Made by a program: the position numbers and the translations under genes. From the NCBI GenBank assembly GCA_964597775.1, contig CAZQZJ010000003.1:1-59311 (forward strand): a stretch of 59,311 nucleotides of DNA, written 5' to 3'. The first letter of the stretch is position 1. Each line of letters starts with the position of its first letter. Origin of the DNA: an uncultured Methanosarcinales archaeon. Lineage in GTDB: Archaea > Nanobdellota > Nanobdellia > Woesearchaeales > JAGWAF01. Below the pieces are notes generated by a model, which ran no database searches, was not told the DNA's origin, and saw nothing but the letters and a program-made list of their open reading frames with translations. This document shows positions 3,757 through 59,311 of this stretch, piece by piece.

Positions 3757-3884
3757 GGGGTTGTGGTCTAGCTTGGTATGATTCACGGATGGGGTCCGCG
3801 AGATCGGGTGCACCCAAGGTCTTCTACCTTGTGGCACACAAACTCACGAAGTGAGTTTGTTGGGTTCAAATCCTCCCAACCCCA
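3757..3884 (+). tRNA. tRNA-Pro(GGG) with a 54-nt insertion in the T-stem (50/51 or 51/52)
   Basis: Acceptor GGGGTTG/CAACCCC+A73, D-arm GTCT-AGCTTGGTA-TGAT, anticodon arm CACGG-AT-GGG-GT-CCGCG, GGTTCAAATCC T-arm. Removing 3808-3861 gives a 74-nt cloverleaf. Confidence 0.85.
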
Positions 3885-4167
3885 TTTTGAAGGATTTGGA
3901 CCGTCTGGGCTTTGTGGAACGGTTTATAGTCGATAAAGTGAGAAAGAGCGTCATGATGATCGGATTTCAGATTGCGGCCAAATGAGTGTTCTGTCATGGT
4001 TGTTGACCGGACGCGACTTCTCCGCGCTGTTCGGTTGATTCTCTGTTGACTTTTATCGTCGTTGAACTACATACATGTTCCCCTGCCAAACAGGATTTGG
4101 ACCGTTTTCTAGAAGGTTGACATAACCGAAGGCAAATAGGGAAAATTCTCACCCATAAAAATCCAAA

Positions 4168-4593
4168 TCACTTTTTAAGCACGCCCTCAACTGCTTTGAT
4201 AAAATCTTCCGCAGTCTCAATTACATTCTTGGCCTCACCGTAATCTATCCTGATCGGATCAAGACCATAATTGATGGCATGCCTATCAAGGCGAAGTGTA
4301 TTGAGCTCATTCAAAAACCTCAATTCAAGGCGATCGGCATATTGCTCCTTGACATACACGAACAGCGCAAAATGGCTCTTCTCAACATAACCGTCCCGGA
4401 ACAACAAAGACCTCGCGGCATGAAACATGCTTGCGTAGGCATTTGCGACTGCTTCCTCAGGGACTATCTTCAGGACCTTTTTAGCCACCTCAATCTTATG
4501 CCATGCCCTCTCGATCGATTTTGCCGCCTTCTCATTATCCGGGACGTCCCGCCTGAGAAGACCCTTTGCAACACATTGTTTGATGTCCATCAT
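4168..4593 (-). CDS. HEPN domain protein (putative toxin)
   Basis: AYASMFHAARSLL...KSH and Rx4HxxxY-like LRLDRHAINY; overlaps the upstream MNT gene. Confidence 0.85.
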   Translation of the reverse strand: MMDIKQCVAKGLLRRDVPDNEKAAKSIERAWHKIEVAKKVLKIVPEEAVANAYASMFHAARSLLFRDGYVEKSHFALFVYVKEQYADRLELRFLNELNTLRLDRHAINYGLDPIRIDYGEAKNVIETAEDFIKAVEGVLKK

Positions 4594-5138
4594 CTCACCA
4601 CAGGAATCTCTCCATGAATCGCGATGCCTCCAATGACCACGTTATCATAGAACGCCTTGTCGTCACGGGCCTTGACCTTCCATTGCGAAGGCGTGAATTG
4701 CATCCATGACACCTCACGATCCAAGACTTTCTCCGATTTTAGCCCGTTGAAGGAAACATTTGACCGGGAGATAATCACGATATCCACATCGCTGTCGGGC
4801 ATATCTGTTCCGCGCGCCACCGAGCCGAACAAAATGACTGACAATATCGCCGGGTTCTTTTTGAGGAGCTCCTCGATCAAACCAACCTCATGGATTCGCC
4901 CAAGAGACAGGGACGCTTTAAGATGCCGAACCAGAACATTATCTCTGTCCAGTTCACACAGGATCATCCTTCCAAGGGGCGTTCGCTTCACCAACCGATA
5001 ATCAGCCAAATAGTCGACTACGCGCTTAGCCGACGTGAGCCCTACACCCGCTCGCTTAGCTATCACGGTCATCGATTCGGGATGCTTTGTTTGCGACATG
5101 CTTTCAAAAACACGGAAAAGGGCATAAGATCGGATCAT
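4590..5138 (-). CDS. wHTH plus minimal nucleotidyltransferase (MNT) antitoxin
   Basis: SVILFGSVARG...DSDVDIVII MNT motif and N-terminal HTH (IAKRAGVGLTSAKRVV); ATG at 5138 with an SD-like GGTGTGGG. Confidence 0.88.
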   Translation of the reverse strand: MIRSYALFRVFESMSQTKHPESMTVIAKRAGVGLTSAKRVVDYLADYRLVKRTPLGRMILCELDRDNVLVRHLKASLSLGRIHEVGLIEELLKKNPAILSVILFGSVARGTDMPDSDVDIVIISRSNVSFNGLKSEKVLDREVSWMQFTPSQWKVKARDDKAFYDNVVIGGIAIHGEIPVVR

Positions 5139-5183
5139 ACACCCACACCAATGATCCTTCCTTAAATGGTTTTCCATTATTCA

Positions 5184-8047: not shown

Positions 8048-8132
8048 TTTTTCAAAATCTTTGGTGGTCAAGGAATCTTGGATAGAGTCCTAGTAGGATT
8101 AGCTTTAATAAGTTCTAGGAATTGGTAGGTGT

Positions 8133-8381
8133 GTGGCACAAGGTAATCAGAATAATAGGTATACAGCACAAGGTAATAATGATCCGTTGTATCGAAAGCG
8201 TTTTTATGCATCTCAGTTAAGGCTTTCATTGGCTGCCTTGGTTGGTGGTGTTGGTATTTCCTATGCAGCTATGAATGGGTATGTTCGTGATTCGTATAAA
8301 CCTTCTCTGGTTACTGATCTTGGTGTTGCTGTGGCTGCTGCTGGTTTGGCTGGTGTGTTGTATAATGTTAAGCGTGAGTAG
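8133..8381 (+). CDS. Small membrane protein
   Basis: 82 aa, GTG start, two hydrophobic segments, short N-terminal duplication AQGNQN/AQGNND. Confidence 0.55.
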   Translation: MAQGNQNNRYTAQGNNDPLYRKRFYASQLRLSLAALVGGVGISYAAMNGYVRDSYKPSLVTDLGVAVAAAGLAGVLYNVKRE

Positions 8382-8761: not shown

Positions 8762-9487
8762 GTGACTATGAACAAGAAGTTTGGTTTGGTTGCACCAAGA
8801 TTTAAACATGTTATTCTGGCTATATCTATTGCAATTGTGTTGGCATTTTTTGTGAATTATACTCTTACAGTTTTGTATCATGAGCCAGAGTATGATGAAT
8901 TTTGTTCAAGTGAATATCATGAGTATACTGATCGTGCGTCATGCGAGGCTAGCGATGGCAAGTGGTATGACGCTGGGAAGAGTAGGCCTGTTGATTTTTC
9001 TGGTCATGTGAAACCTGGTGTTGAGGTAAGGGATTGTCCTGGTCTTTGCAAGGTTGTTCTTGAGCAGGATGTTTGTAATCAAGCAAATATAACATCTTGC
9101 ATATTTTCAAATGTTGTATTTGAGAATGAATGTATGCAATATGGAGGGATTTTTTTTCCTTCAAAACAATGTCCTACTTCAATAAGTATGTTTAGGGGTC
9201 ATTGTGATGCATATTATACATGCAATTTAAAATTGCAGCAGGCCACTAACTTGTATCGCAGAAATGTTTTTCTTACACAGATTATGATTGGTGGATTGCT
9301 TATGGTTGCAGGTATTGCATTAGCTCTTCCTGCAGTAAGTGGTGGTATAATGAGCGGGGCTGTGATTACTCTTTTTGTTGGATTGGTTGGGTATTGGGAT
9401 ATACTTGATAAGTGGGTGCGTATCAGCATTCTCGGGTTGATTTTAGTGGTGTTGATCTGGCTTGGATATAAGAAACTGCAAAAGTAA
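8762..9487 (+). CDS. Membrane protein with a Cys-rich extracellular loop
   Basis: N-terminal TM, loop with about 11 Cys, four C-terminal TM segments. Confidence 0.75.
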   Translation: MTMNKKFGLVAPRFKHVILAISIAIVLAFFVNYTLTVLYHEPEYDEFCSSEYHEYTDRASCEASDGKWYDAGKSRPVDFSGHVKPGVEVRDCPGLCKVVLEQDVCNQANITSCIFSNVVFENECMQYGGIFFPSKQCPTSISMFRGHCDAYYTCNLKLQQATNLYRRNVFLTQIMIGGLLMVAGIALALPAVSGGIMSGAVITLFVGLVGYWDILDKWVRISILGLILVVLIWLGYKKLQK

Positions 9488-9488
9488 G

Positions 9489-10448
9489 ATGCTATTATTT
9501 GAACTGCATAAGGATAATCTTGATCTTGCACAGACTGAGGTTCTTGCGTTATGTAATACAAAGAAAGGTGTTTTAATTGACAATTTATTTTTGGTAAGAA
9601 GTAGATATGATCCCATATTGCTTAGATTGGCATATACTAGACAAATATTTGAGGTATTAGGAGCAGCAAAAAGCCTGGATTGTTTAGAGAGTTTTCTCAA
9701 ACATGTTAAGATTGGAAGTTGTACTGGTTCATTTTGTGTTCGTGTGTATCCTGCTAATAAACCATTAGAATTATTGGTGGCAAAACAAATATTTCATAAG
9801 TGTAAAAATCCAAGAGTAGATTTGGATGATCCACATAACTTTTTTGCATTATTTTGCTATAAAAACAAGGCTATACTGGCAAAACGTGTCGCACTGATTA
9901 CAAATAATTTTGAATCAAGAAAGGCTCATTATAGAGCTTGTCTTAAACCTGTTAGTCTACATCCTAAATTAGCTGCTGCAATGGTGAACCTTTCTGGAGT
10001 AAGATCTGGTTGTGTATTGGATCCTTGTGCTGGAACAGGAGGGATTCTTCTTGAAGCAGGATTAATGAATCTTGAGATAACTGGTGTTGATGTTGATCCT
10101 GAGATGGTAAATGCCTGTACTAAGAATCTTGCCAAATTTGGTGTTGCAGCAAGGGTGTTACATCAGGACGCATTGCTGCTACAGGGTTCATTTCCTGTGG
10201 TTGTATCTGATCTTCCATATGGCAGAAATACCAAGGATCAAGATGTATCAGCTTTTTTTTATGCAATGTTAAAAATGTTAAGAAGATGGAAGACAAAGAT
10301 AGCTGTGTTTGGTCTTCCTAGTTTTGTGAATGTTAATCTAATTGCAAAAAAGGCTGGTGTAATAGTATCTAACGAGTTTGTAATCTATATACATAAAAGT
10401 TTGTCTAAAAAAATTGTTGTTATAAAAAAAGGGGAGCGCCACTTTTGA
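9489..10448 (+). CDS. trm11: tRNA (guanine-10-N2)-methyltransferase, THUMP plus Rossmann (Trm11/TrmG10)
   Basis: SLHPKLAAAMVNL, VLDPCAGTGGILLEAG and DLPYG motifs; ATG at 9489. Confidence 0.85.
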   Translation: MLLFELHKDNLDLAQTEVLALCNTKKGVLIDNLFLVRSRYDPILLRLAYTRQIFEVLGAAKSLDCLESFLKHVKIGSCTGSFCVRVYPANKPLELLVAKQIFHKCKNPRVDLDDPHNFFALFCYKNKAILAKRVALITNNFESRKAHYRACLKPVSLHPKLAAAMVNLSGVRSGCVLDPCAGTGGILLEAGLMNLEITGVDVDPEMVNACTKNLAKFGVAARVLHQDALLLQGSFPVVVSDLPYGRNTKDQDVSAFFYAMLKMLRRWKTKIAVFGLPSFVNVNLIAKKAGVIVSNEFVIYIHKSLSKKIVVIKKGERHF

Positions 10449-10554
10449 ACCCACTTTTTCGCCTAAACAAATTGAAGGCTGTAGGCGTGAGATGCGAAAT
10501 CTTTTTGTACAAAAACTTAAGTTGGCCAGAGGCCGATATTAAGCGTTTTTTATA
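10423..10554. repeat. Palindromic module array S-U-A
   Basis: S hairpin AAAAAAGGGGAGCGCCACTTTT, CGCCTA/TAGGCG inverted repeat, and module A (10507-10554), near-identical to 46548-46595; between convergent genes. Confidence 0.85.
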
Positions 10555-10567
10555 GAATCTTAATTTT

Positions 10568-11710
10568 TTAATTTCTTTTATTTTGTGTTTGTTTTGTTTT
10601 AGTGTTTTGTTGTTTGTCCTTGTGTATTTCTTTGACAATATAATCAGTACGTTCTTGTGGCACAAGTTTTAGGTTAAATGGCTCTGTTGATCTGTCAATT
10701 ACTTTGATCTTGTAGTCAGATGATTGGACTGGTTCATTGGCATGACTTGGAAGTTCTACTTTTTGTGCTGGAAAGATAGTAGGAACTGTTTCTAGTGCTG
10801 GGAGCTTTGTTGATAATGGTTTTTCTTTTATGCGTTTGAGTGCGATCTTAACTGCTTTGTCATAGCATGTGTCAAGCATGCTCCTCTGATTTTTGTTTGA
10901 CTGTGCAAAAAAGTTTGCTAGTTGAGCATCATTGAATGGTTCAATGTCGTGCCCTCCAAAGAATTCTATTCGTTTTTTAATCATTGCTCGAACACTTGGA
11001 TAGTTTAATGGTTTTAACTCAATGTGGAGGCTATCTTTTTGTTGAATATCGATGCGCTTGATTTGATCTACTGATCCTGTAATAATGATTTGTAGAGGAA
11101 TTTTTCTCTTGTAGAGTATGTCAAGACGTGTGAAACATTCTTTTGGCAGGGATGATGCATCATCAAGCAAGAGAATAAGGGGCTGTTTTTTGGTTTTCAT
11201 TATTATATATTCAAGAATAAGATTCTGATTTGAGAAGTCCCCTGCAGCAATGCGCTGGTAAAGTGAATCTGTTGCTTGATACTTTTTGTTGACTCTGGCT
11301 GCAATATAATCTGCAAGTTTGTTAATACCTGTTTTGTACCAGCTGTAAATAAGGACTTGCTCGTGGATGCCTAGGAGTGATTCAATAATATGTCTGGTAA
11401 ATTCTTTTTCTTTAATTTTTTCGCAAGGAATAAGCGCTATATGATAACGATTTCTATATTTTTGCAGTTCATATCCAAGCCAATTAAGGAGAAGTGATTT
11501 ACCCATTCCTAATGCACCTTTAATAGTTCCAAAGGAGTAGGCTTCAATAATAAAATAATTCAGCCGCTGCATTTCTGCTTCATAACCACTAATAAAATAG
11601 TCAACTGGTTCAAGATTTTCTGTTGTAAATGGATTTGAATTCCATCCTAACTCTTTGTACCAGTCAAGGGTGAATGCTTTTTTTATTTTATTGTTTTGTT
11701 TAGGCGACAT
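10568..11710 (-). CDS. AAA+ ATPase (ExeA/AAA_22-like)
   Basis: Walker A GALGMGKS, Walker B LILLLDDA, low-complexity C-terminal tail. Confidence 0.8.
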   Translation of the reverse strand: MSPKQNNKIKKAFTLDWYKELGWNSNPFTTENLEPVDYFISGYEAEMQRLNYFIIEAYSFGTIKGALGMGKSLLLNWLGYELQKYRNRYHIALIPCEKIKEKEFTRHIIESLLGIHEQVLIYSWYKTGINKLADYIAARVNKKYQATDSLYQRIAAGDFSNQNLILEYIIMKTKKQPLILLLDDASSLPKECFTRLDILYKRKIPLQIIITGSVDQIKRIDIQQKDSLHIELKPLNYPSVRAMIKKRIEFFGGHDIEPFNDAQLANFFAQSNKNQRSMLDTCYDKAVKIALKRIKEKPLSTKLPALETVPTIFPAQKVELPSHANEPVQSSDYKIKVIDRSTEPFNLKLVPQERTDYIVKEIHKDKQQNTKTKQTQNKRN

Positions 11711-11755: not shown

Positions 11756-11841
11756 GGCTTTGTCTGAATAGTGTCTTAAAAGCTTGACTTTTCGGACAGA
11801 ATTGGGCCTTTTCGGTCAGGAACCACTTATCGGACAAAGCC
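11756..11841. repeat. Imperfect 18-bp inverted repeat with internal TTTTCGG(A/T)CA direct repeats
   Basis: GGCTTTGTCTGAATAGTG (11756-11773) versus CACTTATCGGACAAAGCC (11824-11841), immediately after the ppsA stop. Confidence 0.6.
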
Positions 11842-21807: not shown

Positions 21808-22587
21808 GTGGTTATGGTTTTAAAGAAACAACTTTTGTTTATTCTTCTCTGGCCAATAATCGCTGCATTACTATCTTTTTTGTTAAAAGCAAATACGTTG
21901 GCTTCAACATTGCTTTTCTTTGGAATTCCTGCAGTATATCTTTCTTTCCTAAAAAAAGACTGTGTGAGAATGGTGACAATATTTTCTGTAATATTTAGCA
22001 TTCCATTTGCTATTATTTTGGATTATGTGATGGAAATTACCGGCGGATGGTATATTCCGAAATCGGTTTTTGACCCTTTGCGGTTGTTTGGATACGTGTC
22101 TCTTGAACAGTTGATTTGGCTGTTCTTGTTCATGTACCTTGTTGGAATTTTTTACGAAGTGTTTTTTGACAAGAAGTGCACGCATAAATTGAATACGCCG
22201 AAACTCAAATATGCGATTTTTGGACTTGTGGTATTTTTTGGAATGTTCATAATTCTGCATATTACAAAACATGAGTTACTTAAAATTAACTTTTTCTACT
22301 TAAAATTCGGAATTATATTGGCACTTCTCCCATTTTTATTCGCACTTTTCCATTTTCCTGATCTTTACAGCGCCATGTTAATTATTGGTAGTTATTTCGC
22401 TTATTTATCATTTATTTACGAAATTACTGCGCTGTCATTGGGGCAGTGGACTTTTCCTGCAGTTGATCAGTTTATTGGATTTGTGAATGTTGGCGGCGTG
22501 ACTTTTCCTATTGAAGAGTTCTTGTTTTGGATTCTTTTAGGCTCACTTGCCACACTGACATATTACCGCTATTTTGGAGAGAAATAA
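21808..22587 (+). CDS. Tandem lycopene cyclase-domain membrane protein
   Basis: Two repeats of D/E-x4-G-x-W...G-x-P/S-x-E-E/Q (LDYVMEITGGWYIP...GYVSLEQ; YEITALSLGQWTFP...GVTFPIEE). Confidence 0.65.
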   Translation: MVMVLKKQLLFILLWPIIAALLSFLLKANTLASTLLFFGIPAVYLSFLKKDCVRMVTIFSVIFSIPFAIILDYVMEITGGWYIPKSVFDPLRLFGYVSLEQLIWLFLFMYLVGIFYEVFFDKKCTHKLNTPKLKYAIFGLVVFFGMFIILHITKHELLKINFFYLKFGIILALLPFLFALFHFPDLYSAMLIIGSYFAYLSFIYEITALSLGQWTFPAVDQFIGFVNVGGVTFPIEEFLFWILLGSLATLTYYRYFGEK

Positions 22588-22956
22588 AGAAATTGCCTGA
22601 AAACTGACTATCCCACCCTTCGCTTTGTTCACTCCGCAGCAAGCTGTGGTGTATTGGTCAGTTTTCTCGCTTCGCGACTGGCAATTTATATAGGAAATAA
22701 CCTTAATTTTAGGATATTTCACAAACGAAAGTAAGGTTATTTCCTAATAATCAAATCACTTTAATAATGGTAAAACATCTGATAATTAAAGTGATTTGAT
22801 ATAATTTCAGAATTGGGTTGTGCAACCGTAGCAGAGCTGTGTGGTATTGAACCCAATTCTGAAATAAAAAAAGTGCGCCTATTTTTGATTTGTCAAAGTC
22901 CACTAACATACTTGTTAAGCCCCAACCTATTGCAGAGGCACTGGCTTAACAAGTAC
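22583..22956. repeat. Palindromic module array Q-R1-R2-P-S-B
   Basis: Q 22583-22687, R1 22691-22746, R2 22750-22800, P 22804-22865, S-like 22866-22887 and B 22909-22956; each recurs elsewhere in the window. Confidence 0.92.
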
Positions 22957-23001
22957 CTACTAACGAAGAATTTAAATAACTCCTCATTACACTGTTAGAA
23001 C

Positions 23002-24493: not shown

Positions 24494-24528
24494 AAAAATG
24501 CTCGGCTGTGCCACAGCCTCGCATTTTT
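24494..24528. terminator. Putative bidirectional terminator
   Basis: AAAAATGC-TC-GGCTGT-GCC-ACAGCC-TC-GCATTTTT between convergent genes. Confidence 0.6.
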
Positions 24529-29292: not shown

Positions 29293-29436
29293 ATGTTAGC
29301 TTTCCTTTCTAAATTTATTGAGTTTGAGTACGTATTAAGCAGGGGTCAGTAGTCTGGTCAGTTGGTAGAGGGCATTCTTGCAGGACTTATCACCATTGGA
29401 CTAATCCTTATCAAACTGATTCATCGTACTTGTTAA
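29293..29436 (+). pseudogene. Possible small membrane-protein pseudogene
   Basis: MLAFLSKFIEFEYVLSRGQ*SGQLVEGILAGLITIGLILIKLIHRTC*: one internal TAG (29350-29352), a TM-like C-terminus, and a stop supplied by the adjacent repeat. Confidence 0.35.
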
Positions 29437-29685
29437 GACCCTATCTGTTGCAGAGGCGCTGACTTGTGTTTGCATTCGCAAACACACAACGCCGCTCGCA
29501 CCTCACAGAACTATTCAAAGAAACCCTCCTATCTGGAACCTCCTCGGGTTTGCGTAGAACTTCATAATAGTGCTCGCATCCTGGCACAATCGAACCCTTC
29601 GGCTTTCGCTGTGCACAAGGTCGAAATGCGACCTTGTTGCGTTCCACGCCAGCGCCTCTGCATAACACCTGGCTTAACAAGTACG
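29425..29685. mobile_element. 261-bp non-autonomous REPIN/MITE-like element built from two inverted module-B ends
   Basis: 13-bp terminal IR CGTACTTGTTAAG/CTTAACAAGTACG, subterminal IR TGCAGAGGCGCTG/CAGCGCCTCTGCA, flanking direct repeat ATTCAT (29419-29424, 29686-29691), and a GC-rich multi-hairpin core. Confidence 0.8.
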
Positions 29686-29747
29686 ATTCATACCAATGTT
29701 TAAAAACTTGCAGAGACTCTAACTAAAAACCGCACAGCGGTTTTTCC

Positions 29748-32101: not shown

Positions 32102-32161
32102 CAGTGTTTCTTTTATTTTCCTCTTACTTGATAGGATTCTTTGTATAAGTCTTAAGAACTA

Positions 32162-32271
32162 TAGGAAATAACCTTAATTTTAGGATATTTCAAAAATGAA
32201 AGTAAGGTTATTTCCTAATAATCAAATCACTTTAATCTGGGAAAAATATCCTATAATTAAAGTGATTTGAT
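32162..32271. repeat. Palindromic modules R1-R2
   Basis: Arms TAGGAAATAACCTTA/TAAGGTTATTTCCTA and ATCAAATCACTTTAAT/ATTAAAGTGATTTGAT are identical to 22691-22800; cores differ slightly; between convergent genes. Confidence 0.92.
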
Positions 32272-32296
32272 ATACCTAATCAGTTTTTCAAAACGC

Positions 32297-33370
32297 TTAT
32301 AGTTTACACAAACTAATTGGCTTTCTTGTATCATCATAAAAACCAGATCTGCATTTGAGTTCAGGCTTACAATCAAAATCAGTGTTGCAACCAATGTTCT
32401 CTGATCTTGCTCTTTTTGGAGAACAAACCTTTGATTTATACAAATCATGGTATAAACAATCTATTTGCAAAGATTCTTTTTTCCCACCCCTTCCTAATAT
32501 TTCTTGAGCACACTCATCCTTTTTTTTACAGGATTCATTTAATCCACTAAACTCTGGTAAACAAATCCAAATTGGCTTATTTGTCTCATCATAAAAACCA
32601 GGCTTACAAACTAAAGACACAGCACAATCACTATTGGAGTTACATATAACATTCTTAGGCCGAGATGTCATAACTTGGCATACCTTTGATTTATAATCCT
32701 CATGGTACAAACATTTCAAACTAGGATCACACTCCACATTTCCACCACATACCTCATTTAACAATGCAAACTCTGGTTTGCATAACCCAATGGGCTTATT
32801 GGTCTCATCATAAAAACCAGACTTGCAGACTAAAGACACAGTGCAATCACTATTAGAATTACAGATAACATTGTTTAGACGCTTATTTCCAAAGGTACAA
32901 ATCTTGGTCTTAAAATCATCATGATATAAACAATCTGAGGATACAATCTTATTATCCTTATCAAGAAGCCTACACTCACTGCTTTTTATACAGCTTTGAT
33001 TAAAACCCTTAAACTCTGGCTGACATAAACTAATTTTCTTACCTTGATTGTCTCTAAATCCTTTAATACACCCAAGTCCTAACTGACAGTCACTATTTAA
33101 CGAGCATTCTAGACCAGAAACCCTATTATGCTTTGGAATACAAACGTTTCCTTGCTTATCTGAACTATACCCACATTCTGTAGATTCACACTCACTATCA
33201 CTCTGACAAGGCACTTCTAATGCATTATAAGAAGCTCTTAGATCGACATCACTCACTTCAAAACCAGTAATAGAAGTATGATATTTGGAAACTGTAAACA
33301 TAGAAAAGATACTGACAACGAGTACAAAAAATAATATAATAAGCTCTGAATGACTATTCATTACAATCAC
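32297..33370 (-). CDS. Membrane-anchored or secreted Cys-rich repeat protein
   Basis: N-terminal TM plus ITG motif, about 9 C-x5-C-x5-C-type units, and a 219-nt internal tandem repeat (32583 versus 32802). Confidence 0.85.
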   Translation of the reverse strand: MIVMNSHSELIILFFVLVVSIFSMFTVSKYHTSITGFEVSDVDLRASYNALEVPCQSDSECESTECGYSSDKQGNVCIPKHNRVSGLECSLNSDCQLGLGCIKGFRDNQGKKISLCQPEFKGFNQSCIKSSECRLLDKDNKIVSSDCLYHDDFKTKICTFGNKRLNNVICNSNSDCTVSLVCKSGFYDETNKPIGLCKPEFALLNEVCGGNVECDPSLKCLYHEDYKSKVCQVMTSRPKNVICNSNSDCAVSLVCKPGFYDETNKPIWICLPEFSGLNESCKKKDECAQEILGRGGKKESLQIDCLYHDLYKSKVCSPKRARSENIGCNTDFDCKPELKCRSGFYDDTRKPISLCKL

Positions 33371-33801
33371 CTTTTTTTATACACTTAATATTATTTGTTT
33401 ATATATCTTTCTTGATAAGAGATGCTAAACAAAATTCAAGAAACAACATGAGACATATCTTTACTGGTACTTGTTTAGCTCCTCTTAGAAGACAGGAGCG
33501 CTGGCTTATAAAATTGTAGTACGAATACCCACAGATTCAACAAAAATTTAAGTTTACACCCTTGTATAACAATTGATTCTATTTCTGTTTTGTTATTAGG
33601 CAATTCATTCAATAAATTATTGGAGAAACCACAAATAAATATTTCGCATTCTATAACAATATCTAGTATTAAGCGCAATAAAACTACGCTTAATGCATGT
33701 TCTGCGTAATTGAGAATTCGGCGCACGCATACCTTTACTATATTGAATCCATCAGGTTTAAATCGCAAAACTTATTTAGTAGCTTCATTAACCTATTTAC
33801 T

Positions 33802-35319: not shown

Positions 35320-35390
35320 GCGCCGAATTCTCAACTTGCTCCGCTTCGCTACGCACCCCGCTGCGCTCTCCTCCTTTCAGTCGTCGGGAC

Positions 35391-35486
35391 GCCTAACAAG
35401 GATTATGAGGAAAATGACTCGGTTCGCCATTTTCCCAAATTGCCTACGCTTCGCTTCGGCAACTTCTCTTAATCGCGATGTTATAT
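35391..35486 (+). other. Integron attC-like recombination site
   Basis: R'' GCCTAAC (RYYYAAC) to R' GTTATAT; L boxes GATTATGAG/CTCTTAATC; inner hairpins including GCTTCGC motifs. Confidence 0.7.
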
Positions 35487-35507
35487 TCAATTCGCAAGCT
35501 TGCCTTG

Positions 35508-35765
35508 TTAATAGACTCGTTCTCTAATATCAATTGCAAAGATGATAATGTGATGATTATCATTATCTACTCTGTATAGCACACGGTAATCTCCAATACG
35601 TATTCTGAACACACCATGCCTACCAACAATTGCCTTGGCATCATGAGGAACCGGTTGATCTTGGAGAAGTGTTTCTGTCTTGTCTACAATCCTTTGTGCA
35701 ATATGTTTATCTGCTTTCTTTAGAAATTTCTGAGGTTGAATATCATATTGAATTCCAAATTTCAT
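35508..35765 (-). CDS. relE: RelE/ParE-family toxin
   Basis: KFLKK...FRIRIGDYRVLYRVD...IDIRERVY. Confidence 0.9.
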   Translation of the reverse strand: MKFGIQYDIQPQKFLKKADKHIAQRIVDKTETLLQDQPVPHDAKAIVGRHGVFRIRIGDYRVLYRVDNDNHHIIIFAIDIRERVY

Positions 35766-35947
35766 ATCCCAAACTCATTCCTCAGTGATTCGCTGGAGAC
35801 AAGAAGATTTTCTTTTTCGTGTTTATAGCTTGCATCAAGTAATTCGCTTTCTTCTGCTGCCAAGAACATATCCCTGTCTGGTATCTCTTCTCTTATTGTT
35901 TTTAGTTCTCTTCTTATAAGTACTAATTCCTGTTTGATATCTTCCAT
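35762..35947 (-). CDS. Cognate antitoxin (acidic, about 61 aa)
   Basis: Small acidic ORF overlapping the toxin start by 4 nt; ATG at 35947 or 35959. Confidence 0.8.
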   Translation of the reverse strand: MEDIKQELVLIRRELKTIREEIPDRDMFLAAEESELLDASYKHEKENLLVSSESLRNEFGI

Positions 35948-36611
35948 TTCGGTGCCCATACAGTTTGTAACAACTCCAGCTTTAAAAACATATCGGCAAG
36001 CTTGTGAACTCTTCGCCAATTTTTGTTTCACAAAAACCATTGTACTTTGACTCGGTCACTTCGTGACGAATATAACCGGAGAAGCCGTCCCACAATTCTT
36101 CCCTAATAACCCCATTTCCAAAAAAAAAGATAATTTAGGGGAATTTAGCAGTATTTCGTCTGCATCATTCTCCGTAATACATGAGAATCCTTTTCCTATC
36201 TGTTCCTGAATATATCTTTTATGCCAAATTGTTAATTCTCATCTCTTGGCATTGCCCCTCAATAATTGATTTCAAAACTTCTTTAAATTAAATGGTTTGC
36301 GTGAGAAAATTGGAAACACAGCTTCCAAATTCTTGGAACAGAGTTCCAAGAAACCCAGATTTAGCTGGATTTATTTTAGGAGTATGTCATTCTTGCTTGT
36401 GCAAAAATGGGACGTCGCTCGCACTTATCTTTATTGTATTATCTTTTTCTTCAGACGATCTTGCAGTGTCATCTGACGCAATTTCAGATTATGCTCTAAA
36501 TGATTAATAATCACATTTGTATTTAGTGTACGAAGATCAAGCAGATCACCAGCAAGCCTAAACTCTGGCTTTAACCTTTGTTCTTGTGACTTCACTTTTA
36601 ATCTGTTCATT

Positions 36612-46244: not shown

Positions 46245-46330
46245 AAAGACCTACACAATAAGAGTAGTTTATAATGATTAAGAAAGAAGAACTTTGAATA
46301 ACCCATTGATAAAAAAATACCCCACAATGA

Positions 46331-46595
46331 AAAAATGGGAGCGCCCCTTTTAAACCACCTTCTGCCTTGCTTTATTTCAGAATTGGGTTCAATACCCCAC
46401 AGCTCTGCTACTGTTGCACAATCCGATTCTGAAATTAGAAATTGTTGGTCGCGAAGCGAGAAAACTGACCAATATCCCACAGCTTGCTGCGGAGTGAGCG
46501 AAGCGAAGGGTGGGATGGTCAGTTTTCAGGCAATTTCTTTATTCTTGGTACAAAAACTTAAGTTGGCCAGAGGCCGACATTAAACGTTTTTTTAT
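46331..46595. repeat. Palindromic module array S-P-Q-A (P and Q inverted relative to the 22.6 kb array)
   Basis: By manual alignment P (46374-46435) differs from 22804-22865 at 4 of 62 positions and Q (46439-46543) from 22583-22687 at 8 of about 105; A at 46548-46595. Confidence 0.92.
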
Positions 46596-46670
46596 AAGTA
46601 ACTAAAACACCCAAGTTTAAAAATGATATATCATTATTAGTATTGGATCAATTTGGATTGATCATCTGCA

Positions 46671-48515
46671 ATGATATACCAACCACTACCAACCACACTT
46701 AGATCATTATACCAATCAACTGCAAAGGCTATTGTAGGTCTTACCCTTATTCAGTCCATTGCATTTGCTGGTAATATACCCCAAGCCAACCGCGTTGAGG
46801 TAGCTGATTACTGGAATAGCAACAAAGTCCAACAAATACTTATTGACACCTACAAAAAAAAGAACCCTAAAAACTATACAAGCATTGTAGAATCCATTAA
46901 CAATGCAGCAAACAGCCTACGAGTCAAGATACGAACAACCAATGGAAAAACTGTTGAATTCAAATTACCAAACGAAAATACCTACAGACCAATTCTTACA
47001 GATCAAGAGGTAGTAGGAGGTATTGATAATATTGTTCAAGAATCAGATTTTGAAGAAAAGAATCTCCTAGCTATTCCAACACCAGAGCCATCTCCTACAA
47101 AACCTAGTCTTGAAGAACCCAGACCAGAACAAACAAATGCCACCTATCCACAGATAACCCCAGAACAATTTACAAGCAGACTTGAAGAGATCAGCAAAGA
47201 ACTAATCAATTCCCAAAGACACAAAGCAAATGCTAGACCATACCAAGTGATTCTTACTGATGCTAAGACGTTATGGTACAGCTTTTTAAGAACAGCATAC
47301 CCCTATGTTGCAGAACAAGACATCCCCTTATTTTACCAATATATAATCAAGAGCCCTTATTTTGTCAATCGTGAAGAAAAGCTCCTTCCAACATATAATA
47401 AAGTGGTAGTTTCCGAGCTTGCAAAATTACTAAACCATACCCAAGTAATACAGCAGTATGCACCAAAATTCTCAGAAAAGATACGAGAACAGCTAACACT
47501 AGAAATAAAGATCCTTGAAGAACACAAAAAGAGAATCATACAAAAAGGAAACTGGGCAGAGAATGTCACTGACAAATTCATATTTACAGAGGAGATCAGA
47601 GATTCGCATGTAGAAAATATCAAAAAGGTCGTGATTCGGGCGGAAAGCTACCTACCACGAGATAGCGATGGCAACATCATACAAAAAGACAAACTGGACA
47701 GAAATGGATGGGTTTACTACCATGCCAACAGCGCAATCCGAACCAACAACCCATTTGAAAATGATTTTACACACGCAGAATTTGGCACTACCATGATCAT
47801 GCACGCATTCCAATACAGAAACGAATTTAGCATGGATGCGTGGATCAACCCAGACACATTTGCATGGTACATGGACATGCACCAACGCATAGGCCATGTA
47901 CTTGATGACATGTTTGACCATGTCCAAAAACACACTGACTTACGCGAATATCTCCAAACTTGCCTACAACCAGAACACCTCACTATAAACACTGACTATG
48001 ACGGCAAACCACACTACAAATTTGGATTTACCACTACCAAAGAATATGTTGATGGTTTTGCAGCTGCTCGCAAACATATGGATGATATCTACCAACAAAA
48101 CACATCACTAGCTGGATTTTTGGAAAGATCCTTTCTCAAACTCCCTATACATGTACTTGATCGTTCCTTTATTAATCTCGGAAAAATCGGTGAAGACATA
48201 GGAGAAGGAAAAATCGCACGACTTGCCTCAACAGATGTATGGAGACTACTTAGCAACTACTTTTTTTTTAAGAACTATGAAGCCATGCTACATGGAAACA
48301 CAGACGCCCTTGCATCACACATTCTTTTCGGAGCTGGAGAAACATCACCAAGAGATGCTGCAGAAGGATTATACAATAATTTGACATCATTTGCACGAGA
48401 CAGTGTTGACATGAAAGGACGGCTTGCAGCTGGACTTAGCACCTATTTTAACACAGACTATTTAATCAATGGAGTTCCTGCCTCATATCGGTTTTTACAT
48501 GATTCAATACGATAA
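46671..48515 (+). CDS. Secreted hypothetical protein: shared N-domain, Pro linker and a ~450-aa unknown domain
   Basis: Signal peptide-like N-terminus (...QSIAFA); N-domain near-identical to that of 49784..50557; His-rich helical C-domain. Confidence 0.85.
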   Translation: MIYQPLPTTLRSLYQSTAKAIVGLTLIQSIAFAGNIPQANRVEVADYWNSNKVQQILIDTYKKKNPKNYTSIVESINNAANSLRVKIRTTNGKTVEFKLPNENTYRPILTDQEVVGGIDNIVQESDFEEKNLLAIPTPEPSPTKPSLEEPRPEQTNATYPQITPEQFTSRLEEISKELINSQRHKANARPYQVILTDAKTLWYSFLRTAYPYVAEQDIPLFYQYIIKSPYFVNREEKLLPTYNKVVVSELAKLLNHTQVIQQYAPKFSEKIREQLTLEIKILEEHKKRIIQKGNWAENVTDKFIFTEEIRDSHVENIKKVVIRAESYLPRDSDGNIIQKDKLDRNGWVYYHANSAIRTNNPFENDFTHAEFGTTMIMHAFQYRNEFSMDAWINPDTFAWYMDMHQRIGHVLDDMFDHVQKHTDLREYLQTCLQPEHLTINTDYDGKPHYKFGFTTTKEYVDGFAAARKHMDDIYQQNTSLAGFLERSFLKLPIHVLDRSFINLGKIGEDIGEGKIARLASTDVWRLLSNYFFFKNYEAMLHGNTDALASHILFGAGETSPRDAAEGLYNNLTSFARDSVDMKGRLAAGLSTYFNTDYLINGVPASYRFLHDSIR

Positions 48516-48517
48516 AA

Positions 48518-48566
48518 GTACTTGTTAAGACCCTATCGGTTGCAGAGGCGCTGGCTTAACAAGTAC
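48518..48566. repeat. Stand-alone module B (49 bp)
   Basis: GTACTTGTTAAG-ACCCTATCGGTTGCAGAGGCGCTGG-CTTAACAAGTAC, 2 nt after a stop codon. Confidence 0.92.
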
Positions 48567-48601
48567 CAATAGAACTAATCTTTTTAAAGTTCGAAATCTT
48601 T

Positions 48602-49783: not shown

Positions 49784-50557
49784 ATGAAATATACAACATC
49801 AGCACAAGACTTGTTTACATCATTATACAAAACAACTGCTAAATGTATAGCAGGAATTACCCTACTCCAATCAATTGCATTTGCAGACACTATACCACAA
49901 ACATATCGAGTTGAAGTTGCTGATTATTGGAACAGCAACAAAGTCCAACAAATACTTATTGACACCTACAAAAAAAAGGATCCTAAAAACTATACTGACC
50001 TTGTAGAATCCATTAACAATGCAGCAAACAGCCTACGAGTCAAGATACGAACAACCAATGGAAAAACTGTTGAATTCAAATTACCAAACGAAAATACCTA
50101 CAGACCAATTCTTACAGATCAAGATGTAGTAGGAGGTATTGATAATATTGTTCAAGAATTAGATTCTGAAGAAGAAACCACAGGATTTGAATACAAACCA
50201 TTGCCACTTCCTTCTCCAGAACCTACGCCAAGCCCTGCACCACAGACTCCTCCTTCTTATTCTGATTCACGTCCTAAGATTCCTTTGGATGTTCCTGGTC
50301 CAGAATATGACAGCAGATTAAATAACACAGAAAAAAGTCCAGAAGAACACCGTACACGTATCAACAATGCAGTTCCTATTATTCTAGGAGGTACAATCTT
50401 ATACCTTATTTTGAGAGGAAGAGGTAGTAGCAGAAGCAACCAAGCTCCAGCAAGGGGCAGTATTGGAAGCGGTTCTGGAGGAGGCGGAGGAAGTGGTAGT
50501 GGAACAAGCCCTGGATTTAACCCAAATAATCACATTGGCCCTGGAGACACTAGATAG
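49784..50557 (+). CDS. Secreted or anchored protein: shared N-domain, Pro linker, TM and Gly-rich tail
   Basis: Same N-domain as 46671..48515; TM AVPIILGGTILYLIL; GSGGGGGSG tail. Confidence 0.85.
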   Translation: MKYTTSAQDLFTSLYKTTAKCIAGITLLQSIAFADTIPQTYRVEVADYWNSNKVQQILIDTYKKKDPKNYTDLVESINNAANSLRVKIRTTNGKTVEFKLPNENTYRPILTDQDVVGGIDNIVQELDSEEETTGFEYKPLPLPSPEPTPSPAPQTPPSYSDSRPKIPLDVPGPEYDSRLNNTEKSPEEHRTRINNAVPIILGGTILYLILRGRGSSRSNQAPARGSIGSGSGGGGGSGSGTSPGFNPNNHIGPGDTR

Positions 50558-57776: not shown

Positions 57777-57932
57777 GGGGCTGTAGTATAACTTGGCTAG
57801 AATAGGTGGCTCCAGTCATGGAGCGATGAGCTGCAGTAATCTGTAGCAATGAAATAAACCTATGGTCTGTTGAAGCCTTTGCTTCAAGGAAGAGACCACC
57901 GGATCAGGGTTCAAATCCCTGCAGCCCCACCA
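57777..57932 (+). tRNA. tRNA-Trp(CCA) with a canonical 37/38 intron (57816-57894) and encoded CCA
   Basis: GGGGCTG/CAGCCCC-A-CCA; anticodon stem GGTGG/CCACC; BHB with central helix CTCC/GAAG (one mismatch) and intron stem CATGGAGC/GCTTCAAG; TTTATAAA about 30 nt upstream. Confidence 0.95.
57816..57894 (+). ncRNA. Intron-encoded box C/D-like guide RNA (putative Cm34/Cm39)
   Basis: TGGAGC-g-ATGA and TGGTCT-g-TTGA: antisense elements place C34 and C39 opposite the fifth nt upstream of D-like boxes. Confidence 0.55.
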
Positions 57933-59224: not shown

Positions 59225-59226
59225 AT

Positions 59227-59311
59227 TATAAAAAATGCTTAAGTAGGCCAGAGACCGACATTAAGCGTTTTTGTACCAAGAATAAAGAAATTGCCTAAAA
59301 ACTTACCATCC
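59227..59311. repeat. Palindromic module array A-Q (truncated by the window end)
   Basis: TATAAAAAATGCTTAA-GTAGGCCAGAGACCGACA-TTAAGCGTTTTTGTAC followed by CAAGAATAAAGAAATTGCC..., the Q start as in the reverse complement of 46519-46547. Confidence 0.9.

Follow-up and report, generated by a model that had tools for sequence, protein, structure and literature searches.

The contig and its palindromic repeats

The stretch of DNA analyzed here (the window) is a complete contig of 59,311 nt, CAZQZJ010000003.1, from a DPANN archaeon (Woesearchaeota) of Hainich groundwater, and it carries several families of short palindromic modules that are packed, in differing combinations, into the gaps between its genes. 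These genes have housekeeping functions (glycolysis, a 2-oxoacid dehydrogenase complex, tRNA and rRNA modification, Orc1/Cdc6 and STT3); toxin-antitoxin pairs are also encoded. The intergenic share is about 5.5 kb (9%) and the GC content of the genome is 38%. The geranylgeranyl-reductase-like gene of the window is also found on Hain_H51 contigs (ENA ERZ1292627-41), in a Logan assembly and in the NCBI metagenome-assembled genome (MAG) GCA_038044785.1; the closest homologues are labelled Candidatus Woesearchaeota, the best match being just 68% identical.

Repeat finding together with BLAST searches against the window recovers five palindromic families (Q, R1R2, P, B and A) that recur across seven intergenic sites. 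The copies are 87-97% identical over 45-115 nt, with E-values of 1e-9 to 1e-39 that place the matches far above chance, and the window holds three of Q, two of R1R2, two of P, three of B (one a long form) and three of A. The module units measure 45-267 nt, and only spurious open reading frames (ORFs) overlap them. The hairpin modules described in the initial annotation are thus real, and the orders that it gave for the arrays are correct. Its list of modules needs correction: R1 and R2 are a single element, U is present once and S is a loose resemblance. Only 27 nt at 89% identity are common to the 10.4-kb and 46.3-kb copies of S, and the 22.87-kb copy merely resembles them. The mixed arrays, and the Q, P, A and S-like modules, are the following.

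10418-10556 (+): S (10425-10451), U (10455-10500, a single-copy hairpin) and A (10504-10556), between convergent genes
22583-22964 (+): Q-R1-R2-P-S-B
46325-46597 (-): S (46325-46356), P (46366-46437), Q (46436-46543), a 13-nt linker and A (46545-46597), between divergent gene starts; the Q-P junction here is the version without R
59226-59311 (+): A, the 13-nt linker and the start of Q, inside which the contig ends
Q copies: 22583-22690 (+), 46436-46543 (-) and 59281-59311 (+, cut by the contig end)
P copies: 22802-22873 (+) and 46366-46437 (-)
A copies: 10504-10551, 46545-46592 and 59226-59273
22866-22890 (no strand assigned): S-like stretch composed of an A-run, GCGCC and a T-run; terminator-like, family assignment weak

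The 22.6-kb array folds with -128 kcal/mol (z = -8.3 against shuffled sequence), and no intergenic regions of the window are more structured than the gaps that hold modules (z from -4.5 to -7.7). Since most of the other gaps are unstructured, and since a relative at 50% identity (L012) has none of these hairpins, we take the modules to be a lineage-specific expansion and not a general punctuation of genes.

As multicopy repeats tend to interrupt assemblies, it is understandable that five independent Hainich and NCBI assemblies break inside modules, namely in R2 (22787), the long B (29526), S (46343 and 46355), P (46412) and Q (46529 and 59311); one short-read contig (L009) spans exactly the interval from the Q at 46529 to the Q at the contig end (59311). 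Contigs that end inside modules, the window itself ending in Q, are also what one would expect if the whole pattern were an assembly artefact of chimeric joins or collapsed repeats. We find this scarcely credible: the independent short-read assemblies of this population agree with the window in every base, assemblies from different samples are equal base for base across the solo R (32.2 kb) and the B at 48.5 kb, and R recurs in no fewer than eight other metagenomes.

Another contig from the same population (L008) ends in R1-Q and has a solo R next to a HEPN/nucleotidyltransferase pair. It was recovered with the translated array as protein query, aimed at spurious ORFs over other copies; a concatenated six-frame query gave no match, and in an exhaustive HMMER search with the translated array, P0121 was again the sole match. 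Gene pairs for HEPN and minimal nucleotidyltransferase proteins lie at 4168-5177 of the window and at 6683-7350 of L008, the latter pair directly adjoining the solo R element.

The R element

The two window copies of R are located as follows.

22689-22803 (+): R element, with the R1 hairpin at 22691-22746, the R2 hairpin at 22750-22800 and TA at 22689-90 and 22802-03
32160-32274 (+): solo R element, TA-flanked on either side, between convergent genes

When the 22.6-kb array is compared with the reverse complement of the 46.3-kb array, the two are collinear over Q-P-S and differ by one clean 113-nt indel, which is R1R2. This confirms the earlier remark that Q and P are adjacent at 46 kb and have R1-R2 between them at 22 kb. 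The site lacking R at 46.4 kb consists of the left flank, a single TA and the right flank, gaplessly joined; a synthetic sequence, in which the left and right flanks of the 22.6-kb site were joined by one TA, matches it over 77 nt with no gap. It is the one R-less site that the search for empty sites turned up. R1 and R2 were never found apart: in 34 of 34 copies the R2-type hairpin comes after R1, so that they form one element of about 112 nt.

A metagenome scan with both R1 arms gave 32 loci in at least eight other metagenomes, merely two pairs of which overlap (JGI Ga0209541 (3300025317), Ga0209211, Ga0209542, Ga0209212, Ga0208375, Ga0105164, Ga0080064, the ORMF/ORJL records and contig Hain-H43). 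There are some 30 distinct R loci in Woesearchaeota metagenomes, and their flanks are unrelated (35% identity). The ends of the element are invariant (TATAG...CTATA), with TA on both sides in all 25 copies compared; the base 5' of the left TA is a pyrimidine in 22 of these 25 and the base 3' of the right TA a purine in 24. The outer arms constitute 13-nt terminal inverted repeats, TATAG[G/C]AAAT[A/C]AC (TAGGAAATAACC type), which read TATAGGAAATAAC and TATAGCAAATCAC in sequence. Termini that are symmetric, a flanking TA at each end and an empty site with one TA are together the insertion signature of IS630/Tc1-mariner-type elements, and we infer from this anatomy that R may be mobilized by an IS630/Tc1-mariner-like DDE transposase encoded elsewhere in the genome.

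Other pattern scans were less productive. The B arm gave one chance match among genome contigs, in a Firmicute, the collection being one without the species of the window; the A core had no match in metagenomes; and R1, Q and B had none in viral contigs, so that no link to viruses was found.

The palindromes of R are under visible constraint. Pairwise identity in R2 is 88% in the arms against 65% in the loop, and across 25 distinct copies the R2 stem and its apical 5-bp helix covary (five pairs changed on both sides, 23 cells), with a covariation score that was reached in none of 500 shuffles. Mismatches in the R stem are G.T in 8 cases and A.C in 13; with no asymmetry between the strands, the constraint is symmetric on the palindrome and not exerted on one transcribed strand. 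The earlier statement that arms are more conserved than cores thus holds within families; between families the opposite applies, P and Q having a common core and different arms.

In comparisons of the window with hosts that have a 50% identical glyceraldehyde-3-phosphate dehydrogenase (GAPDH), the identity of R is about 87%, which points to horizontal spread or to strong constraint. The GAPDH of one R-bearing contig (L017) clusters with a protein annotated Candidatus Woesearchaeota, and 112 ORFs from R-bearing loci are archaeal in their family summary. Another R-bearing contig of the same metagenome (L021 789-8055, Ga0209541_10009057) encodes Rnf-complex subunits, ApbE, isopropylmalate/isocitrate dehydrogenase and homocitrate synthase-like proteins, a metabolism richer than is usual for DPANN; the Woesearchaeota label comes from L017. 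Arrays of 20-30-nt hairpins, of the CAGAAATCGC-TTT-GCGATTTCTG and AAAAAATCC-TAC-GGATTTTTT types, lie at L028 6980-7160 and L021 8220-8310, and represent another short palindromic repeat family that often adjoins R.

The B element

Direct evidence of insertion is also provided by B, which has three copies in the window.

22900-22964 (+): short B (22908-22956) with 8-bp direct repeats CCACTAAC (22900-07) and CTACTAAC (22957-64), 7/8 match
29418-29692 (+): long B (29426-29684) with 8-bp direct repeats GATTCATC/GATTCATA, 7/8 match; beside tRNA-Val
48510-48574 (+): short B (48518-48566) with degenerate 8-bp direct repeats CGATAAAA/CAATAGAA, 6/8 match; the element starts two bases past the stop of ORF 46671-48515

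The bounds of the element were taken as GTAC...GTAC and the eight bases on each side were compared. Random window positions match in 7 of 8 bases at a frequency of 0.0015 and in 6 of 8 at 0.011, so the joint chance of the three duplications (0.0015, 0.0015 and 0.011) is about 3e-8. The three different 8-bp duplications are direct scars of a staggered-cut DNA insertion. By its flanks, B would be mobilized by a DDE-type transposase of a family that makes 8-bp staggered cuts, again encoded elsewhere.

What had been described as a B doublet at 29.4 kb is instead one 267-nt element, with 36-nt B-type inverted termini beginning GTACTTGTTAAG and a GC-rich, structured core of 190 nt; it folds with -108 kcal/mol (z = -7.7). 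The short B (49 nt) is composed of the left terminus and the last 13 nt of the right terminus, and is therefore a deletion derivative. With its stable fold, a core that is GC-rich in a 38% GC genome and a tRNA gene next to it, the long B could conceivably be the gene of an unknown small non-coding RNA, the short forms being decayed copies, and some other units might be of this kind as well. This seems highly improbable to us: no Rfam family matches it even at E <= 10, a second copy or homologue of the core was not found, the core resembles further small nested hairpins, and 36-nt inverted repeats with an 8-bp duplication are the anatomy of a transposed element. In the Rfam covariance-model search of the window no module matches, and only two tRNAs appear at E <= 1.

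The duplications also bear on the proposal of the initial annotation that all modules belong to one system of stackable single-stranded DNA (ssDNA) hairpins, taken here as substrates of a single HUH-type enzyme (IS200/IS605 TnpA or RAYT-like) in the manner of REP, REPIN and PATE units. There is something to be said for it, considering that every module is a near-perfect palindrome, that R has one hairpin at each end like the ends of IS200/IS605, that compensatory changes keep the hairpins paired and that mismatches without strand asymmetry fit hairpins at the DNA level; moreover, IS200/IS605 is the most widespread insertion-sequence family in archaea (PMC13343696). However, B is flanked by target-site duplications of 8 bp, and R, with its symmetric terminal repeats, by a duplicated TA; two duplication lengths imply at least two transposition chemistries or enzymes, which argues against any single HUH system. 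It is established that HUH transposition (IS200/IS605, RAYT) leaves no duplication and that HUH elements insert 3' of a fixed tetra- or pentanucleotide. A tag of the GTAG/CGTC type (the criterion of PMC3733652) is absent here, the ends being TATAG (R), GTAC (B), AAATTGCC (Q) and ATTTCAG (P). Nor is there a strand bias, as Q and P occur in both orientations within GC skew of the same sign, and there is no Y1/HUH protein among the ORFs of the window (59 kb tested), where no tyrosine recombinase was seen either. A single enzyme of this type is consequently very unlikely.

Q, P and A

Q is a nested hairpin of about 100 nt, AAATTGCC/GGCAATTT being its outer arms and TGAAAACTGAC/GTCAGTTTTC its inner ones. 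Sharp boundaries are common to the four copies, three of them at 22.6, 46.4 and 59.3 kb and the fourth on L008. ORF 21808-22587 takes its stop codon from the first bases of Q (22583-22587). P has 16-bp arms ATTTCAGAATTGGGTT/AACCCAATTCTGAAAT around a 30-nt core homologous to that of Q, so that the two families combine unrelated arms with a common 33-nt core (p < 0.003). The apical GC hairpin CCGCAGC-AA-GCTGTGG-GTATT is common to P, Q and elements in L024 and L042, and Q-P is bracketed by GAAATAAAG repeats. P, Q and A are palindromic from end to end. A, its linker and Q are a fixed unit, the 13-nt linker being the same at 46.5 and 59.2 kb. Between the A copies at 46545-46592 and 59226-59273 the inner hairpin is inverted relative to the outer flanks and the Q linker, and the A loop is CCAGAG on the + strand in each of the three copies of the window, which suggests that the core of A was flipped by recombination between the arms.

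The arrays as probable pile-ups of small transposable elements

In view of these data, it is quite probable that the arrays are pile-ups of several small non-autonomous transposable-element families, of the kind known as MITEs (miniature transposable elements with inverted repeats), in the scarce intergenic DNA of a compact Woesearchaeota genome. The elements are shorter than about 500 bp and have no coding capacity, they have terminal inverted repeats, and their dispersed copies stand in unrelated flanks; duplications accompany B (three different 8-bp repeats) and R (TA, 25/25). Each family other than R has 2-4 copies in the window and L008 taken together. Genome parasites of this kind are known, and the modules do not form a new system.

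The arrays are best read as nested and adjacent insertions and re-copied composites. Each family would be moved, by cut-and-paste or copy-and-paste, through a DDE-type transposase whose gene lies elsewhere in the genome, new copies landing preferentially at a TA that borders an earlier element, or in its loop. A TA-duplicating element that lands on a TA at the border of an earlier one creates a palindrome-(A/C)-TA-palindrome junction, and the array junctions Q|R, R1|R2, R|P and Q|P all read in this way; B differs from the other modules in having a duplication of its own, at a distance of about 35 nt. Once formed, composites like A-linker-Q and Q-P would be re-copied as units and give the arrays their mix-and-match look; Q-P recurs at 22.6 and 46.4 kb. 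R itself may be such a composite, in which two related mini-palindromes have fused and no longer move separately, and A and S, with their A-run/T-run hairpins, may secondarily act on transcripts. Insertion into or beside other palindromes can also be seen in the metagenome loci: R occupies the loop of a P/Q-like hairpin in L024, where a Q-like hairpin adjoins it; the R1|R2 junction of L040 contains a 39-nt insert; in L044, R2 is disrupted by another palindrome; and L028 has four short A/T-run hairpins beside R.

Much of what the initial annotation supposed about mobility is compatible with this origin. The units are discrete and non-coding, and insert independently beside or inside one another, with the exception that R1 and R2 do not do so separately; mobilization in trans is borne out, no enzyme being encoded in the modules or the window. 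No evidence was seen that the modules move cargo genes; their neighbours are ordinary chromosomal genes. Neither do the modules appear only in a fixed order as fragments of one insertion sequence, or as plain terminators.

A number of observations weigh against a MITE origin. A search for transposases found none in the 59-kb window or among 30 singly screened ORFs beside R copies, and no transposase-encoding element with matching terminal repeats in the roughly 250 kb examined (window, L008 and the 32 metagenome loci). No presence/absence polymorphism of R between populations was found: 10 of 10 contigs around the L025 copy and 3 of 3 around the L013 copy carry R, the Hainich contigs are identical to the window, and the sole pair of occupied and empty sites lies in arrays of one genome. 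Q, P and A show no unambiguous target-site duplication. The covariation of the R2 arms and apical mini-helix, and the common core of P and Q within differing arms, are not required by a simple binding of transposase to terminal repeats. Finally, A with its linker is kept at the orthologous divergent intergenic site of L007 (GCA_016211165.1), where the flanking proteins are 68% identical and Q and P are absent, which suggests a constraint beyond selfish spread. Four features, namely the arm covariation, the P/Q core, A at an orthologous site and the identity of R across hosts, go beyond what simple selfish MITEs explain.

These features raise the possibility that it is the hairpin fold itself, and not the terminal sequence, that is recognized, through a structure-directed mobilization or a hairpin-templated amplification in DPANN archaea, with horizontal spread and with some units (A) domesticated. 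The reasons for considering it are that arms covary, that one apical GC hairpin is common to families with unrelated arms, that insertions occur at TA beside or inside palindromes and that R is about 87% identical across distant hosts. A mechanism of this sort would build new composite elements in arrays and spread them between lineages; we consider it unlikely.

Are the hairpins terminators?

A different question is whether the hairpins are primarily functional RNA or DNA structures (terminators, insulators or stabilizers of mRNA 3' ends) that have been multiplied by need, their mobility being incidental. Besides A and S, one hairpin in particular should be taken into account here.

24494-24528 (no strand assigned): A-type architecture AAAAATGC-hairpin-GCATTTTT, with convergent genes on either side; resembles a bidirectional terminator

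A, S and this hairpin consist of an A-run, a stem and a T-run and stand at gene ends. They fit the features of intrinsic terminators (GC-rich stem, T-run, gene 3' end) and resemble bidirectional ones, a role that they may have. Several modules start at a stop codon or overlap one, a window gene has its stop followed by B where the stop of the L007 orthologue is followed by an unrelated hairpin, and the conservation of A and its linker in L007, like the covariation of arms, would be natural for a functional structure. On the other hand, P, Q, R and B have no T-runs and do not fit. The claim that the arrays sit at stop codons or convergent junctions fails for those at 29.4 and 46.3 kb, which separate divergent gene starts, and at many convergent and tandem junctions a hairpin of any kind is absent. 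The numbers of G.T and A.C mismatches in the R stem give no sign of selection on one transcribed strand, and the folding energies of the window copies are similar on both strands. Target-site duplications, moreover, mean insertion events, and the relative L012 does without these hairpins. A scan for sigma-70 promoters and terminators gave counts equal to the shuffled expectation, with a loop limit too short for the purpose. Overall, a primarily functional origin of the modules seems unlikely.

In L007, two tandem copies of a terminator-like unit, AAAAGGGGGCTTTGCCCCCTTTTT, lie right past the reductase stop (11102-11168), and the unrelated hairpin past the stop of the gene whose window orthologue precedes B is 64 nt long (8128-8191). 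In the window, ORF 9462-10448 (an RNA methyltransferase) reads through S (10425-10448) to its stop.

Relation to known repeat systems

The pneumococcal RUP, Neisseria Correia elements and Sulfolobus SM1 are TA-duplicating MITEs linked to IS630/Tc1-mariner (Stowaway-like), and they are the closest mechanistic relatives of R. Like them, R is about 100 nt long, non-coding, intergenic and hairpin-forming; it has terminal inverted repeats bordered by TA at each end, the empty site having one TA, and it is present in many copies with no transposase of its own. It is unlike them in consisting of two related tandem hairpins, whose terminal repeats pair with an adjacent internal copy in place of one long foldback, in the covariation of its arms, in its DPANN hosts and in that no partner insertion sequence was found. 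IS630 is present in archaea (PMC13343696).

With respect to the arrays, E. coli BIMEs and Neisseria NIMEs are mosaic clusters of small interspersed repeats, and the BIME units (REP) are thought to depend on RAYT. Pneumococcal BOX, RUP and SPRITE elements also cluster and insert into each other (PMC10969869). These BOX/RUP/SPRITE clusters and the E. coli BIMEs are the closest counterparts of our arrays: in all such clusters, NIMEs included, unrelated short families occupy common intergenic sites in variable order with nested insertion, and terminator-like members occur (SPRITE there, A and S here). The differences are that the sequences are unrelated, that the host is archaeal and that two of the families have duplications of different length.

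The modules resemble REP/REPIN-RAYT and IS200/IS605-derived PATEs in being extragenic palindromes that can fold as single-strand hairpins, and R recalls PATEs by a hairpin near each end, a resemblance only; they depart from both in their duplications, symmetric termini and lack of strand bias, in having no GTAG/CGTC tag (PMC3733652) and in the absence of a HUH gene from the window. Integron attC sites are likewise imperfect palindromes, recombined as folded single strands, but there is no integrase in the window, no cassette ORFs and no R/L boxes, and the modules have duplications and housekeeping neighbours. The attC reading was dropped for want of an integrase, a CRISPR reading because the spacing is irregular, and a tRNA-intron (bulge-helix-bulge, BHB) reading because no bulge-helix-bulge geometry is present.

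Among archaea, a census of prokaryotic MITEs gives the highest densities to DPANN genomes, a Woesearchaea genome included (105-146 per Mb; PMC11602168). The window has about 12 copies in 59 kb; the census does not appear to deal with anatomy, families or array structure. A literature search found no paper that describes these particular families.

Despite the tiny, gene-dense genome of this DPANN archaeon, about a quarter of the intergenic DNA of the window would thus be selfish palindromic repeats. The breaking of short-read assemblies at such repeats partly explains why DPANN MAGs are fragmented. Inserted elements supply the stop codons and C-termini of two genes and so shape coding sequence, and the arrays show two small elements fusing into one composite (R1+R2). 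The R family could serve as a marker for horizontal DNA flow among groundwater Woesearchaeota, across differently named studies and wells. None of these findings requires a new biological principle.

Other features of the contig

Two single-copy hairpins are probably decayed relatives of the families described above.

11756-11841 (no strand assigned): 86-nt hairpin, fragments of which match the P arm (CAGAATTGGG) and the B terminal repeat; probably a decayed relative
33416-33487 (no strand assigned): hairpin with an arm, TACTTGTTTAGCTCC, similar to that of B; probably a relative of B that has decayed

At 3757-4167 there is a likely intron-containing tRNA (acceptor GGGGTTG...CAACCCCA, T-arm GGGTTCAAATCC at 3862-3873) that neither ARAGORN nor Rfam calls. 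Just 3' of it, at 3886-3902, is a stretch complementary to its T-arm, and beyond it a non-coding region of 280 nt and 44% GC lies between direct repeats AGGATTTGGACCGT (3891-3904 and 4094-4107); this region could be an integration scar or an unrecognized RNA. The tRNA gene at 57777-57929 (Rfam score 38.8, no ARAGORN call) is 153 nt long, so that its intron must measure about 80 nt.

Two non-coding gaps of unusual length (35320-35507 and 36041-36611) flank a ParE-like toxin pair (35508-36040); the first has 52% GC against 38% for the genome, and neither has an Rfam match. A 357-aa ORF without a Pfam match (32297-33370) contains three internal repeats of about 219-255 nt with 76-79% identity. 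Finally, two neighbouring genes without known function (614 and 257 aa) have in their 5' parts a 360-nt segment in common, at 89% identity (46699-47057 and 49815-50173), which suggests a recent partial duplication or gene conversion.

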